From Oscillospiraceae bacterium (lineage in GTDB: Bacteria > Bacillota > Clostridia > Oscillospirales > Ruminococcaceae), in the NCBI GenBank assembly GCA_045544715.1, contig JAZPZN010000108.1, positions 8,163 to 72,162 of the forward strand: DNA of 64,000 nucleotides, read 5' to 3'. A program made the position numbers and the translations under genes. Below the pieces are notes generated by a model. That model saw only the letters and a program-made list of their open reading frames with translations. It had not been told where the DNA came from and did not search any database. Positions within the stretch are counted from its first letter, which is position 1. Each line of letters begins with the position of its first letter. Positions 17,678 through 22,274 of this stretch are shown in pieces.

Positions 17678-18622
17678 TTACCTATCTCTTCCACAGGAGC
17701 GGCACACCGAGTCGTTCACTCCATTTATGTATGAACAGTAGTGGCATTCCCATTCGCCGTGCTCATTAGCAACCCTCAGCCTGCGCTGTATCTTTCCACT
17801 CAGATTGTGCACATTGCCACTTTCAGCCTTTTGTGTCAGACGGCTTATCTGCACTATGCCATAGTACATCATGCCAAAACTTATGATATTTCCCGTAACC
17901 AGCATAAGATACAAGTCTATTTCCGCAACAAAAGACAGCATCGTTTGTATCGCTGCCTGTTTCTTCATTAGCACAGGTATAAGCAGAATGATTGCGAATG
18001 CCTGAAAAACAGAGAACATTATCAACAGAGGTATCGCTACATATTTCGCCTTATCCCAGACAAGCTCAGTACCGTTTGACGAACTGCCTCCGGATATCTC
18101 AACGGGATGAGTATCCACATATCTGGATACACCCTCTTGATTCCAGATTGCGTGATAGAACTCCACATCCTCCGTTCCACGAATATTATATTCCATCAGA
18201 AACTCGTGAAAATCCCACTCATCGGGAGCGGAATCCCAATACTCACGTACCTGCTCCCTTGCAAGCTGTGTCTTTTCGTAGAGCTTACGTTCCTCAAAGG
18301 TCATATCCTCAAGCATATGAGCGTGATACTCCTCGGCAGTTATCTCGTGTGGGTCTTTACCTATTATCCCCGTCATAAAAAGCACCGCAAACACGCAGAT
18401 AAAAAGCTCTATCAATACAGCCCCGAATATCATCATAGAAGAAAAACTCAGCTCGGTCTTTTCACGCTTTGTAAAGCTGTCATCAAGCTCCAGCTTTTTG
18501 AAGATATCGATAGGCGTAGTTTTTTGTCCACAGGTGGGACAGGTTTTTTCAGCCCCGTGGAGCGGCTGATAGCAGAGGCTGCAATAATACGACATATTCG
18601 AGAACAGCTTTTCATATTTCAT
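17678..18622 (-). CDS. Membrane protein with N-terminal zinc ribbon and C-terminal RanBP2/NZF-type zinc finger
   Basis: CSLC-x10-CPTC at N-terminus, 3-4 hydrophobic segments, C-terminal WECHYCSYINGVNDSVCRSC. Confidence 0.65.
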   Translation of the reverse strand: MKYEKLFSNMSYYCSLCYQPLHGAEKTCPTCGQKTTPIDIFKKLELDDSFTKREKTELSFSSMMIFGAVLIELFICVFAVLFMTGIIGKDPHEITAEEYHAHMLEDMTFEERKLYEKTQLAREQVREYWDSAPDEWDFHEFLMEYNIRGTEDVEFYHAIWNQEGVSRYVDTHPVEISGGSSSNGTELVWDKAKYVAIPLLIMFSVFQAFAIILLIPVLMKKQAAIQTMLSFVAEIDLYLMLVTGNIISFGMMYYGIVQISRLTQKAESGNVHNLSGKIQRRLRVANEHGEWECHYCSYINGVNDSVCRSCGRDR

Positions 18623-18633
18623 ATTATCACCCC

Positions 18634-19383
18634 TTATTCTATCTTGAGCTTTTTGTAATAGTCAAGCGCAGAAAATGATCGCTCCGTCCTCGTTAGAAAG
18701 TAGCACTCCGTCACCTTTGACAGCAGCTTTGAATTCTCCTCGCCAAGCGTAAAACGAAAAGCCTTATCAAGCGGTGCATAGAGGATATTTCGCATAGCCG
18801 CCAACACATCGGGTGTGAGAGTAAAATATCTCCCACCGAAGTCCTTGTCGAAGCATTCACCGCAGACCAGCTCACCGCTGTCGGGGAGAAAATACATATC
18901 CTCGCTCTCATAGCATCCGCAGTTAAAGCAAGCCCTTAGGTCAGGATAATATCCCAGCATAGCGGAAAATCTCAGCTCAAAGGCAGAGCGCACTATATCA
19001 AGATTTTCTGCCTTCTTCGTTTCAAAAAGGGCAATAGCAAAAAATCTCACTATACTGTCCTGCGACTGCTCCTCAGGCGTACAGAATCTCACCGCCTGCG
19101 CAAAATAAGAGGCTAGTGCCAGCTTTTCGATGTCACTGCCCAGCTCATGAAAGCTGTAGATAGGCTTTGCACTGTTTATCGTGTATCGCAGTTTTGATTT
19201 GTTAAGGCAGAATTTCGCATAGGAAAACAGTGCCGAAGAACCCAGCAGATTGCTGTTTATCTTCTTTGCACCGTGAGCGGTCGCCTCAATTATCCCCTGC
19301 TCGTCAGTGAGTATATCAAGAAAGCATCCGCTTTCACCCACCTCACGCCTGCCTACGACTATTCCATCATAAGTGAACAGCAT
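18634..19383 (-). CDS. recO: DNA repair protein RecO
   Basis: GIVVGRREVGE....DILTDEQG....AHGAKK, Zn finger CFNCG...CGEC; era-recO synteny. Confidence 0.92.
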   Translation of the reverse strand: MLFTYDGIVVGRREVGESGCFLDILTDEQGIIEATAHGAKKINSNLLGSSALFSYAKFCLNKSKLRYTINSAKPIYSFHELGSDIEKLALASYFAQAVRFCTPEEQSQDSIVRFFAIALFETKKAENLDIVRSAFELRFSAMLGYYPDLRACFNCGCYESEDMYFLPDSGELVCGECFDKDFGGRYFTLTPDVLAAMRNILYAPLDKAFRFTLGEENSKLLSKVTECYFLTRTERSFSALDYYKKLKIE

Positions 19384-19395
19384 ATCCTCACCTCG

Positions 19396-20172
19396 TCAAC
19401 GGTCACTGAATATCGAAAGGTCAAAATCCTCGCCCCTGCAAAAATCTATGCGCTTTTCGATCTCCTGTATCAGCATATCAGATGATTGATCATCAAATGT
19501 CTGAAGCACTATCGGCTCATGCTCACCAAGTGCTTTCAGCTGTTTTTTGTTCAGTCGGGCATTGCCGATATATACGGGAATGATTATCCCACCGTTCTTT
19601 TTCGCCATCTTTATCTCGTGATGCACAACATAAGAGCCTGCCGTGTTCTCCGTTACAAGCAACAGTATAAAGCCGCTTGACGCTGCATTCTTTATACAGC
19701 TCTGCATTGTCGTGGCAAAGTCCACACCTGCCTCAAGCTCATCAATGCCGATATACACACGATAGTCTTTACGTGTAAGTTTATTGCAAAGCGATCTTGC
19801 AAGCCCCATATCCTCGGCAGCGTAGGAAATGTAGACCTGCAGTTGGGTCGCAATCCTGTCCACCTGTGCTTCAATATCGCCATCGGTATCCACTGTAAAT
19901 ATCTTTTTGTCTGTAAGGCTTTTAATATATTTGCACTCTGACTTCACCCATGCAGAGCGCCTAGAGTTCTCGCTGTCAACAAAAACAAACCACTCACGCT
20001 CATCTATCTCACGCTTTATGAGCCCCTCTATCTCACTGCTGTCGCTGAGGCATTTAAGATAGAACACAAGCGGCTCAAAACCGTGATGCTCAAAACGATT
20101 GCGTATCTGCCTTACAACGGAGATGTCAAAATGCGAATGCGAAATAAACACCAGACCGCCGCTGTTATCCAT
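19396..20172 (-). CDS. Tandem TIR-TIR domain protein
   Basis: Two repeats of the TIR beta-A/alpha-C signature: VFISHSHFD...SRRSAWVKSE and VYISYAAED...TAGSYVVHHE; strong AAGGAGG RBS. Confidence 0.8.
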   Translation of the reverse strand: MDNSGGLVFISHSHFDISVVRQIRNRFEHHGFEPLVFYLKCLSDSSEIEGLIKREIDEREWFVFVDSENSRRSAWVKSECKYIKSLTDKKIFTVDTDGDIEAQVDRIATQLQVYISYAAEDMGLARSLCNKLTRKDYRVYIGIDELEAGVDFATTMQSCIKNAASSGFILLLVTENTAGSYVVHHEIKMAKKNGGIIIPVYIGNARLNKKQLKALGEHEPIVLQTFDDQSSDMLIQEIEKRIDFCRGEDFDLSIFSDR

Positions 20173-20197
20173 AAAAACCTCCTTTTATTCAAACAGA

Positions 20198-20220
20198 GGG
20201 CGGATAATTTTTATCCGCCC
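20198..20220. terminator. 10-bp hairpin between era stop and TIR gene RBS
   Basis: gggcggataa-ttt-ttatccgccc; weak U-tract. Confidence 0.5.
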
Positions 20221-20226
20221 GTTGAA

Positions 20227-21126
20227 TTACTCATCTGCAAGCCCCATATCATTGATGAAACGCTCTCGGTTACGCCAATCCTCTTTAACTTTTACAAAGC
20301 ACTGAAGATTTACCTTTGCCTGCAAAAGCTCTTCGATATCCTTTCGTGCAAGAGAGCCGATAGTTTTCAGCTTTTCTCCACCCTTACCGATTATCATTCC
20401 CTTGTGACTGTCCTTTTCGCAGATGATAACAACACCGATATCGATAAGCTCTTTGCCATTCTTTTCTCTGGTCTTGAAGCTCTCGATATCTACCGCAACA
20501 CCGTGAGGTATCTCCTCCTGCATTGTCCACAGCACCTTTTCACGCACTATTTCGGCGCACATGAAGCGCTCTGTACGGTCAGTAGCAATATCATCGGGGA
20601 AGAAGTGCTCACCCTCTACTGCGTATTTTTCGAGAATAGGCATTATCTTGTCGGTATTTATACGATTCTTGACGCTTATCGGAATTATCTCCGCAAAGTC
20701 GTAAAGCTCGCTGTACTGCTGAATGATACCAAGCACATCGCTCTTTGACTTAAGCAGATCTATCTTATTTAGCAGAAGGATCACCTCTGTACCATGTGAG
20801 GCAAAACTGCGGACAAGATCCTGCTCGATAGCCGAAAGTTTCTTCGTCACATCCACCATAAGGATAGCACAGTCCACATCATCAACGCTGGTGCGGATAG
20901 ATTTCACCATATGCTCAGACAGCTTTGTCTTGGGCTTGTGCATACCTGGGGTGTCGATGAATACATACTGCACATCTCCCTCGGTAAGCACACCGTTTAT
21001 GCGGTTTCTGGTGGTCTGGGGCTTTTCGCTGACGATAGACACCTTTTCTCCCACAAGAAGATTTGTAAGGGAGGATTTTCCTGCGTTAGCCCTGCCCGTT
21101 ATTGCTATAAATGCATTTTTTGTCAT
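20227..21126 (-). CDS. era: GTPase Era
   Basis: GRANAGKSSL, PQTTRN, DTPG, NKID, KH-like GMIIGKGG, VKVKEDWR. Confidence 0.97.
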   Translation of the reverse strand: MTKNAFIAITGRANAGKSSLTNLLVGEKVSIVSEKPQTTRNRINGVLTEGDVQYVFIDTPGMHKPKTKLSEHMVKSIRTSVDDVDCAILMVDVTKKLSAIEQDLVRSFASHGTEVILLLNKIDLLKSKSDVLGIIQQYSELYDFAEIIPISVKNRINTDKIMPILEKYAVEGEHFFPDDIATDRTERFMCAEIVREKVLWTMQEEIPHGVAVDIESFKTREKNGKELIDIGVVIICEKDSHKGMIIGKGGEKLKTIGSLARKDIEELLQAKVNLQCFVKVKEDWRNRERFINDMGLADE

Positions 21127-21128
21127 AT

Positions 21129-22274
21129 CTACCTCTGTTTTTTATACTCCACTCTGAATTCCTCATACACCACAGACATATCCTCGGAAAACTCATATCC
21201 GACCATTGCTCCGTGTGTTACAAAAAAATCCCGATGCTTATTCTGCCACTCCTCAAGGGTCTTGTCATCGTTCTCTTTTCGAGCCTGCTCAAGCGTTATC
21301 TCATTGAACGGAATGATGCTGACCCTTGTCGTCTTTATCACACATCTCGGCACTCCGTCCCAATCAGTTACTATGCTATACTCGCCCTTTTTGGGAATAT
21401 CGTCACCATCTATCTCATACGCAAGATAGCTGTTTGTAGATGCACGCTTTTTCCCCCTCAGTACCAGCTTAAGCAATCTTTCGCTCTCCCGCTCATCTCT
21501 ACCGAAACGGAATACCTCAACGCACTCCGTGGAATAAGGCAGCCCTTTTTCCTCAAGGAAGCTCTCCCAGAAGTCCTCCAGCAGCTTATCCATATACACC
21601 TCATGCATATCGGGACGTTTTTCTTCGGTAACTCTCAACGCTGCCTTTCTCTGCCACTCGGATATCACTTTGTGGTCGCCTGTCAGCAGTTCGTCTGGTA
21701 CAGCTCTACCGTTCCATTCTCTCGGCATGGTATACTGAGGATATTCAAGAAGTCCGTTAAAGTGGCTCTCTATGCTGTAAGCGTCCTCGTTTGGCAGAAC
21801 ACCGTTCTGCATTCTTGCCACTGCGTCAGCAACGATTAGCGCAGGGAGCTCTCCTCCCGTCAGCACATAATCGCCCACTGATATCTCCTCGCACTCCAGC
21901 TCGTCCAGCACACGCTGGTCTACACCCTCATAGTGTCCGCAAAGAAGAATGAGCCCACTTTCCTCCGCAAGCTCTTTCACCTTTTCCTGAGTGAGGACCT
22001 CACCCTGTGGCGACATATAGATTATACGGGGCTTTTTATCGTGCTTTGACACGATATCCATAATGCAGTCATAGATTGGCTGTGCCTGCATTACCATACC
22101 CGTACCGCCCCCATAGGGAGTGTCGTCTACTCTGCGGTGCTTGTTCTTAGTGTAATCTCTGATATTGTGAGAATATATCTCAATATGCCCGTTTTGTATC
22201 GCTCTGCCAATAATGCTCTCATGAAGTACGCTGTCGCACATATCGGGAAACAGCGTTGCGATATCAATCCTCAT
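21129..22274 (-). CDS. trmD: tRNA (guanine37-N1)-methyltransferase fused to C-terminal ASCH domain
   Basis: TLFPDM, VDDTPYGGGTGM, LCGHYEGVDQR, GDYVLTGGELPA; from ~aa 228 FG....LLKLVLRGKKRAST..PKKGEYSIVTDWDGVPRCVIKTTRV...PFNEI (ASCH). Confidence 0.9.
   Translation of the reverse strand: MRIDIATLFPDMCDSVLHESIIGRAIQNGHIEIYSHNIRDYTKNKHRRVDDTPYGGGTGMVMQAQPIYDCIMDIVSKHDKKPRIIYMSPQGEVLTQEKVKELAEESGLILLCGHYEGVDQRVLDELECEEISVGDYVLTGGELPALIVADAVARMQNGVLPNEDAYSIESHFNGLLEYPQYTMPREWNGRAVPDELLTGDHKVISEWQRKAALRVTEEKRPDMHEVYMDKLLEDFWESFLEEKGLPYSTECVEVFRFGRDERESERLLKLVLRGKKRASTNSYLAYEIDGDDIPKKGEYSIVTDWDGVPRCVIKTTRVSIIPFNEITLEQARKENDDKTLEEWQNKHRDFFVTHGAMVGYEFSEDMSVVYEEFRVEYKKQR

Follow-up and report, generated by a model that had tools for sequence, protein, structure and literature searches.

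A tandem TIR–TIR gene in the era–recO operon of an Oscillospiraceae bacterium: a candidate self-contained NAD-consuming enzyme with two unequal domains

Toll/interleukin-1 receptor (TIR) enzymes play a central part in bacterial, plant and animal immunity, and their activity is governed by the way in which TIR domains pair. Among the described systems, SpbK of Bacillus subtilis ICEBs1 is a single-protein abortive-infection system with a catalytic glutamate in its C-terminal TIR domain; its resting dimer is inactive, and binding of the phage portal clusters the TIR domains via the BE interface, generating active sites and activity as a nicotinamide adenine dinucleotide (NAD+) hydrolase, or NADase (PMC12847820). 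In the staphylococcal Thoeris system ThsA–ThsB1–ThsB2, ThsB1, which binds a capsid protein of the phage, brings in the cyclase ThsB2 and activates it (PMC12578639). The DUF4062/NIR TIR-like NADases Swarozyc, Vulcan, Vesta and Evangelion combine a small NADase carrying a catalytic glutamate with a variable auxiliary module, and deplete NAD+ as single genes upon sensing a phage protein (bioRxiv 10.64898/2026.05.01.722283, 10.64898/2026.09.04.749371). Stand-alone TIR proteins were expressly excluded from a systematic survey of the TIR signalling systems of bacteria (10.64898/2025.12.03.692087). Furthermore, the only tandem or two-TIR protein that a literature search aimed at bacteria brought up was Dictyostelium TirE, which also holds two diverged TIR domains in one polypeptide but is eukaryotic and carries RCC1 repeats (PMC13142454); a literature search on PDB entry 8BTN found nothing. 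In this study, a gene encoding two tandem TIR domains was analyzed, which lies between era and recO in a 64,000-nucleotide stretch (the window) from an Oscillospiraceae bacterium (GenBank assembly GCA_045544715.1, contig JAZPZN010000108.1, positions 8,163 to 72,162 of the forward strand).

The gene starts with ATG and comprises 258 codons and a stop codon, giving a protein of 258 amino acids (window list of open reading frames and translation; Table 1). This protein belongs to the TIR superfamily by both sequence and fold. The Pfam family TIR_2 (PF13676) matched the whole protein in two stretches (E 2.7e-26, 92.9 bits), with weaker matches to ThsB_TIR, TIR and CAP12-PCTIR_TIR. When the curated TIR_2 cut-off of 28 bits was applied to each half separately in a six-frame search of the genome, both halves exceeded it, the C half with 53.7 bits and the N half with 41.5 bits, and PADLOC ThsB models also matched both halves, at the domain level only (E 5e-11). 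The AlphaFold2 model, built with 49 homologues, consists of two consecutive beta-alpha-beta units (predicted local distance difference test score 91.7, predicted template-modelling score 0.88); its best Foldseek matches in the PDB were the TIR domains of SPARTA, SARM1 and AbTir, with a probability of 1.0, and further matches included plant TIRs and TLRs. In a profile–profile alignment (hhalign), the N half (residues 5–104) and the C half (residues 108–240) were aligned over 85 columns with a probability of 97.3% (E 2e-11), E79 being placed opposite E186. The halves are thus homologous, and the protein goes back to two TIR domains that were internally duplicated or fused long ago. A first-pass annotation of the DNA had proposed two TIR repeats joined covalently in one polypeptide, a proposal that would have fallen had structure prediction given no TIR folds; the present results agree with it.

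Each half also holds a glutamate at the position of the alpha-C helix that is predicted to be catalytic. The N-terminal domain contains the motifs VFISHSH and WVKSE (W75-x-x-x-E79), and the C-terminal domain contains VYISYA and VVHHE (E186). E186 aligns with the catalytic glutamate of Caenorhabditis elegans TIR-1/SARM1 (VHHE versus VHKE in a phmmer alignment), and E79 aligns with the equivalent glutamate of solved TIR chains; the two glutamates had been picked out in the same motifs by the first-pass annotation, and alignment to TIR-1/SARM1 and to solved TIR chains upholds this assignment. SARM1, TIR-1 and AbTir provide the closest solved structures, together with the alignment for the C-terminal domain, and a SARM1-like catalytic helix of the WxxxE type is present in the N-terminal domain. 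However, these proteins have one TIR domain and oligomerize through SAM or coiled-coil regions, whereas the protein described here has two TIR domains in tandem and no oligomerization domain.

The two domains have evolved very unequally, as seen both in a main alignment of 49 mostly clostridial sequences and in a cross-phylum alignment of 16 sequences. In the main alignment 36 columns were invariant and all of these except E186 fell within the N-terminal domain, where the invariant pattern is made up of F-I/L-S-H-S-H-x-D, GFEPLxFYLKCL in the BB-loop region, EIExLIKREI, REWF and S..S.WV..E. Across phyla the N domain retained 19 invariant residues, including S11, H12, S13, H14, D16 and E79, with W75 nearly invariant (15 of 16); in the main alignment position 79 was glutamate in 48 of the 49 sequences and aspartate in the other. 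E186 was invariant in both alignments (49/49 and 16/16) and is the sole invariant residue of the C domain, while the position four residues before it was aromatic (W, F or Y) in 31 of the 49 members and is valine in the window. Among the 49 sequences, the N domains shared a mean pairwise identity of 0.70 and the C domains one of 0.36; across phyla these values were 0.52 and 0.25, respectively. Such unequal evolution is as expected for an enzyme combined with a sensor. We consider, with a probability of roughly 0.55, that the gene would encode a self-contained NAD-consuming TIR enzyme that acts in conflict or defence, in which two anciently duplicated TIR domains are fused; this reading draws on the sequence and on analogy with characterized systems.

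The protein resembles SpbK in being encoded by one gene without a partner, in its length of approximately 260 amino acids and in having a TIR domain with a glutamate at the catalytic position. However, SpbK has as its N-terminal module a four-helix bundle that acts as a sensor, and the protein described here has in that place another TIR domain, which is highly conserved; SpbK resides on a mobile element and the tandem TIR gene in a core operon. No SpbK chain was found among the PDB sequence matches at E ≤ 1, and with a TIR domain as its N-terminal module the protein is not of the SpbK type. Nor does it belong to the DUF4062/NIR group: the N domain matched DUF4062 (PF13271) with 20 bits over residues 8–65 only, below the cut-off of 24.7, and passes TIR_2 instead. 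The auxiliary module of that group consists of HEAT repeats or a helical stalk, whereas its place here is taken by another TIR domain. The TIR effectors of CBASS, Pycsar and type III CRISPR systems (TIR-SAVED, TIR-STING, PycTIR and CARF-TIR) are likewise excluded as relatives of the same type, the 258 residues containing only two TIR domains, with no fused nucleotide-sensor domain, and no cyclase gene lying nearby. We rate the covalent two-TIR architecture as undescribed and the protein as otherwise of an already known kind, that of TIR-based conflict or defence enzymes.

The family is large. A word-indexed search returned 251 relatives, and a hidden Markov model search of 1.84 billion representatives gave at least 522 clusters (50% identity) at E ≤ 1e-30; nearly all of these clusters are 245–270 amino acids in length and were matched from end to end, so that the tandem architecture is a hallmark of the family. 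One subgroup of approximately 330 amino acids carries a short C-terminal extension. Matches in genomes came mainly from Clostridia of the ruminant and human gut, with other carriers in Anaerolineales (Anaerolineae), Nitrospira, Kiritimatiellae, Bacteroidota and Bacilli, as well as in one betaproteobacterium, one actinobacterium and one archaeon (Methanoregula). The distribution is very patchy even among close relatives: a real homologue was found in only one of 36 species of the same genus, at 35% identity, and in none of 60 relatives of another carrier. The Methanoregula member (L069:7980-9323) is a TIR-TIR-RyR fusion, with an E value of 2.9e-18 for the RyR domain. RyR domains are suspected to bind nucleotide-derived ligands. 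The most abundant member, P0019 (328 amino acids, on 580 contigs), lies in a TIR-rich island (L018-L021, about 0-7500, and L079) that comprises genes for a 434-residue multi-TIR protein, a 226-residue TIR protein, a 724-residue protein without a Pfam match, the tandem TIR protein and a 130-residue TIR fragment, flanked by Vsr, type I restriction, serine recombinase and rve integrase genes; the trio of 77-, 226- and 724-residue proteins from this island recurs on a Selenomonadaceae contig.

A dedicated partner was sought among the neighbours of the gene. Open reading frames were called in 80 loci by a simple longest-frame heuristic and the resulting 912 proteins were clustered. No non-TIR cluster occurred in more than eight of the 80 loci, and the repeats reflected clade-level synteny only: recO recurred in eight loci, a SpoVT-like gene in seven and DUF1028 in five Anaerolineales loci. 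Beyond such synteny there was no recurrent neighbour in 59–75 loci. No STING, SAVED, SIR2, Macro, cyclase or CARF gene was found near the TIR gene (within approximately 10 kb for STING, SAVED, SIR2 and Macro), in agreement with the earlier remark that no sensor, STING or ThsA partner is adjacent. Neighbours of 690–880 residues were considered as partners and rejected: the 724-residue protein and a 753-residue protein were unrelated by BLASTP, none of 21 such neighbours matched one another across lineages (phmmer), and their Pfam content differed, being absent or consisting of NAD synthase, SLH, AAA or TIR-NB-ARC. Taken together, the findings fit a functional accessory gene for an enzyme of the TIR class that has spread horizontally and acts without a dedicated partner.

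In the staphylococcal Thoeris system, too, there are two non-identical TIR domains, which there belong to proteins that divide the labour, and the best family-level matches of both halves of the tandem protein are ThsB models. In Thoeris, however, ThsB1 and ThsB2 are separate proteins, whereas both TIR domains are here in one polypeptide with no ThsA nearby. The protein might be read as an orphan ThsB-like signal generator, which would produce a cyclic ADP-ribose-type or ADP-ribose-derived messenger upon infection that is read by an unlinked effector. This is rather unlikely in our view. The PADLOC ThsB models and Pfam ThsB_TIR as best family-level matches, the RyR domain of the archaeal member as a candidate ligand-binding module and the occurrence of some members in clusters of several TIR genes speak for a signal generator, as does a weak match to the NCBIfam model of Thoeris type III ThcB4; however, this match reached 28 bits against a cut-off of 220, and the effectors of described Thoeris systems are operon-linked (10.64898/2025.12.03.692087), whereas no neighbour recurred in 59 loci. 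With no effector nearby, the protein does not belong to Thoeris ThsB. Furthermore, SIR2_2, the domain of type I ThsA, was not found in six carrier genomes, namely the window genome and five others. The single Macro protein of the window genome has no obvious transmembrane effector architecture and lies beside an NAD-salvage cluster; with no SIR2_2 gene found either, a ThsA-type effector in this genome was rejected. The suggestion in the first-pass annotation that the protein might be the sensor for an effector encoded elsewhere is accordingly weakened; of the ThsA, SIR2 or Macro effectors for which it had proposed to look, only the Macro protein turned up, in its NAD-salvage setting. The cluster itself (contig C75:21175-26586) contains nadE, a nicotinamide phosphoribosyltransferase-like gene, a prs-like gene, a pncA-like isochorismatase gene and a NUDIX/NrtR-like regulator gene, and the macrodomain gene, of the MacroD type, adjoins it and runs off the end of the contig. 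The only other TIR gene of the window genome (contig C119:12545-14056, minus strand) lies among aspS and gatA/gatB and encodes 503 amino acids with an N-terminal TIR domain, a transmembrane helix, a Ser/Thr-rich linker and an extracellular DUF6273; frames of approximately 500 residues with a similar TIR domain occur in many genomes of the same genus.

Comparison with related genomes confirmed that the gene is inserted in the era–recO operon, as the first-pass annotation had stated. In seven genomes of the same genus (Era 83–94% identical) the site is empty, era being followed by recO after only approximately 18–50 nucleotides, whereas five other assemblies with Era 95–98.7% identical carry the tandem TIR gene at exactly the same site (L013-L017, L026). 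The gene is thus an old, clade-specific accessory insertion into an otherwise contiguous era–recO junction rather than a universal core gene. Relative to L013, the closest of these loci, the synonymous divergence (dS) was 0.72 for the TIR gene, 0.65 for era and 0.61 for recO, and this similarity indicates that the gene has been inherited together with its neighbours since the split from L013; within its small clade it is vertically inherited. The ratio of nonsynonymous to synonymous divergence (dN/dS) in the same comparison was 0.11 for the TIR gene, 0.009 for era and 0.017 for recO. The gene is therefore under purifying selection that is approximately tenfold more permissive than that on its neighbours, and, judged from a dN/dS of 0.11 and a dS near those of era and recO, it appears to be functional. 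Within the era–recO clade the two domains differed in dN/dS, the N domain reaching 0.055 and the C domain 0.165.

The selection data also bear on the notion that the protein is a non-catalytic TIR scaffold, serving protein–protein assembly like the animal TIR adaptors, or a decaying remnant. In the clade of the window the C-terminal domain no longer has the aromatic residue of its WxxxE-type motif, and TLR-type non-enzymatic TIR domains also retain a glutamate at the alpha-C position. However, both glutamates are invariant, the single aspartate at position 79 apart, over at least 49 + 16 sequences from many phyla, the reading frames are intact in all orthologues at a dN/dS of 0.11, and the best structural matches are enzymatic TIR domains. 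A scaffold or remnant is consequently very improbable.

Several observations weigh against an enzyme of the conflict or defence kind. In several clades the gene is stable among core genes and not on mobile elements, as at era–recO and in the DUF1028 synteny of Anaerolineales. No match was found in 50,697 phage or 72,556 plasmid records, and 2.9 million viral contigs yielded a single partial match to the N domain. Among 95 immediate neighbours at 59 non-redundant loci, approximately 12–14 matched PADLOC models at E ≤ 1e-8 as a raw count, and approximately six of these were other TIR genes. Only about 13% of the immediate neighbours thus match defence models, half of them TIRs; CARF-PDDEXK, restriction enzymes, bSEFIR, PbeA and a few PADLOC candidate models were single cases, and the remaining neighbours were ordinary metabolic genes. 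The aromatic residue missing from the C-terminal domain belongs to the same list, as does the very strong conservation of one domain across phyla, which is unusual among defence proteins.

Much of this would suit a non-immune accessory enzyme or regulator, that is, a nucleotide or NAD(P) glycohydrolase of the TIR/NDT type that acts in NAD homeostasis, stress or sporulation-linked signalling and has become fixed in core operons. In favour of such a role, the gene holds a stable operonic position, is vertically inherited and has a guanine–cytosine (GC) content of 0.45–0.47, equal to that of its flanks and fully ameliorated. Purifying selection, housekeeping neighbours at most loci and the high conservation of the N domain across phyla are also in line with it, as are the proximity of spoVT in six loci, that of an adjoining NAD synthase gene in L031 and that of a related gene in L048. 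At the former locus (L031:5558-7819) a glutamine-dependent NAD synthase of 753 residues (CN_hydrolase and NAD_synthase domains) is encoded immediately 5' of the tandem TIR gene, and at the latter a related gene of 246 residues lies two genes away from it; the arrangement may be fortuitous or may reflect a connection with NAD metabolism. The spoVT-like gene lies within five genes of the tandem TIR gene in L022, L023, L032, L035, L044 and L048, and is directly divergent in two of them. As a sign of a core gene this linkage was rejected. Among the spoVT-linked carriers the identity of the TIR-TIR proteins (53–75%) exceeds that of SpoVT (29–74%), and none of the 60 relatives of one carrier has the gene, so that transfer into similar neighbourhoods is more likely; the surroundings of spoVT may be a recurrent landing neighbourhood. 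Moreover, the distribution is extremely patchy even among close relatives, and some members lie in defence-type islands that are rich in TIR genes and hold restriction-modification, Vsr and recombinase genes; others lie beside further TIR, CARF-nuclease or restriction genes. A non-immune role is therefore regarded as improbable, and a conflict-type enzyme remains the preferred reading.

In the window the gene is part of a block in the order mgsA, hisS-like, DUF2127, rimM, trmD-ASCH, era, TIR-TIR, recO and a gene for a zinc-ribbon membrane protein. The TIR stop codon and the start codon of recO are separated by only 12 nucleotides that include the ribosome-binding site of recO, so that recO must be transcribed through the TIR gene; this spacer occurs identically in L013. 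The first-pass annotation had also described a 10-bp hairpin between era and the TIR gene, which is indeed present (six GC pairs, a loop of three nucleotides, a free energy of −21 kcal/mol and a z-score of −2.7) and is terminator-like or attenuator-like. In L013 the same hairpin stands just 5' of the TIR ribosome-binding site, though a different gene precedes it, and in L014 it is not present. It thus stays with the TIR ribosome-binding site and, in the branch of the window and L013, forms part of the 5' leader of the TIR gene rather than a conserved terminator of era.

Table 1. Positions of the tandem TIR gene, its domains and flanking elements in the window
Feature	Position	Strand	Evidence
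Tandem TIR-TIR gene	19396..20172	−	Open reading frame list, translation, Pfam, AlphaFold2, Foldseek
N-terminal TIR domain (residues 6–98)	19879..20157	−	TIR_2, 41.5 bits; Glu matches that of solved TIR chains in profile alignment
C-terminal TIR domain (residues 110–240)	19453..19845	−	TIR_2, 53.7 bits
E79 codon (Glu at alpha-C catalytic position of N-terminal TIR)	19936-19938	−	Read from sequence
E186 codon (alpha-C Glu of C-terminal TIR)	19615-19617	−	phmmer alignment to TIR-1/SARM1
era (GTPase and KH domains), upstream flank	20227..21126	−	Pfam MMR_HSR1, KH_2
recO, downstream flank	18634..19383	−	Pfam RecO_N, RecO_C
TIR ribosome-binding site AAAGGAGG, 5 nt 5' of TIR start codon	20178..20185	−	Read from sequence
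12-nt spacer CGAGGTGAGGAT, TIR stop to recO start, with recO ribosome-binding site	19384..19395	−	Read from sequence
10-bp hairpin followed by UCUGUUUGAA, between era and TIR ribosome-binding site	20198..20220	−	Sequence, folding

A functional link of the gene to era or recO was also considered. In one distant lineage (L039/L046) the gene lies two to eight genes from era–recO; however, one additional lineage near era–recO among approximately 50 is within chance, and the link was rejected. Within the genus, small insertions and rearrangements are concentrated around era–recO. An APH-like kinase gene lies between era and the TIR gene in L013 (4905-5924), PNPOx-like and GNAT genes lie between trmD and era in L014/L015, and in other species of the genus (L101-L111) a MATE transporter gene, or minD-like and mgsA genes, stand directly 5' of recO. 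Approximately 500 bp separate the TIR gene from recO in L014 (6766-7264), with two to three direct copies of an AT-rich unit of approximately 70 nucleotides (…CTTTTCAGCGTTTGGCACAGGAGAGATATTTCTTATCATTCTTTTTGTTCTTTTTATTATTGTTTGAT…) that has no counterpart in the window. The trmD gene is fused to a C-terminal ASCH domain (381 amino acids, tRNA_m1G_MT and ASCH; window positions 21129-22274, minus strand), a fusion that is kept in L013-L017. Directly 3' of recO, a membrane protein of 314 amino acids with zinc-ribbon motifs at both ends is encoded (window positions 17678-18622, minus strand); it is kept in the clade and matched no Pfam family above cut-off.

In the preferred reading, that of a self-contained NAD-consuming enzyme, we infer that the protein is a NADase, that its domains divide the work, that a trigger exists and that abortive infection results; the division between the domains is proposed by analogy with SpbK, with Swarozyc and Vulcan and with Thoeris ThsB1/ThsB2. 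The N-terminal TIR domain, with its invariant SHSH-D loop, BB loop and WxxxE motif, would be the NAD+-cleaving module, and the fast-evolving C-terminal domain, in which only the glutamate is kept, would serve as a specificity, gating or assembly module, so that the tandem protein may be a fused counterpart of the sensor ThsB1 and cyclase ThsB2 pair. At rest the intramolecular TIR pair would be inactive. A trigger, probably a phage protein, would bring TIR domains of the same or of different molecules together head to tail, which would complete a composite active site; NAD+ would then be consumed and the infected cell would stop growing, as in SpbK, Swarozyc and Vulcan. The gene was inserted long ago at era–recO and would be transcribed with the operon, and the hairpin may damp read-through. 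A more far-reaching proposal, which is tentative and on balance doubtful, is that the proteins form a bacterial and archaeal family of single-gene immune systems that has yet to be named, with the SHSH N-terminal TIR domain as the NAD-consuming enzyme, the C-terminal TIR domain as phage sensor or gate and no need for an effector, as if the ThsB1/ThsB2 pair were contained in one molecule, and that a member has been domesticated into the essential era–recO operon in a clade of Oscillospiraceae.

A sizeable family of proteins with two unequal, covalently linked TIR domains has thus gone unstudied. If active, these proteins would provide a minimal natural system, of approximately 255 amino acids and without a partner, for the switching of a TIR–TIR interface between off and on, and would allow one to ask whether one TIR domain can be the sensor for another. 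Furthermore, the locus suggests that an essential operon, and not only a defence island, can be the lasting home of a conflict-type gene.

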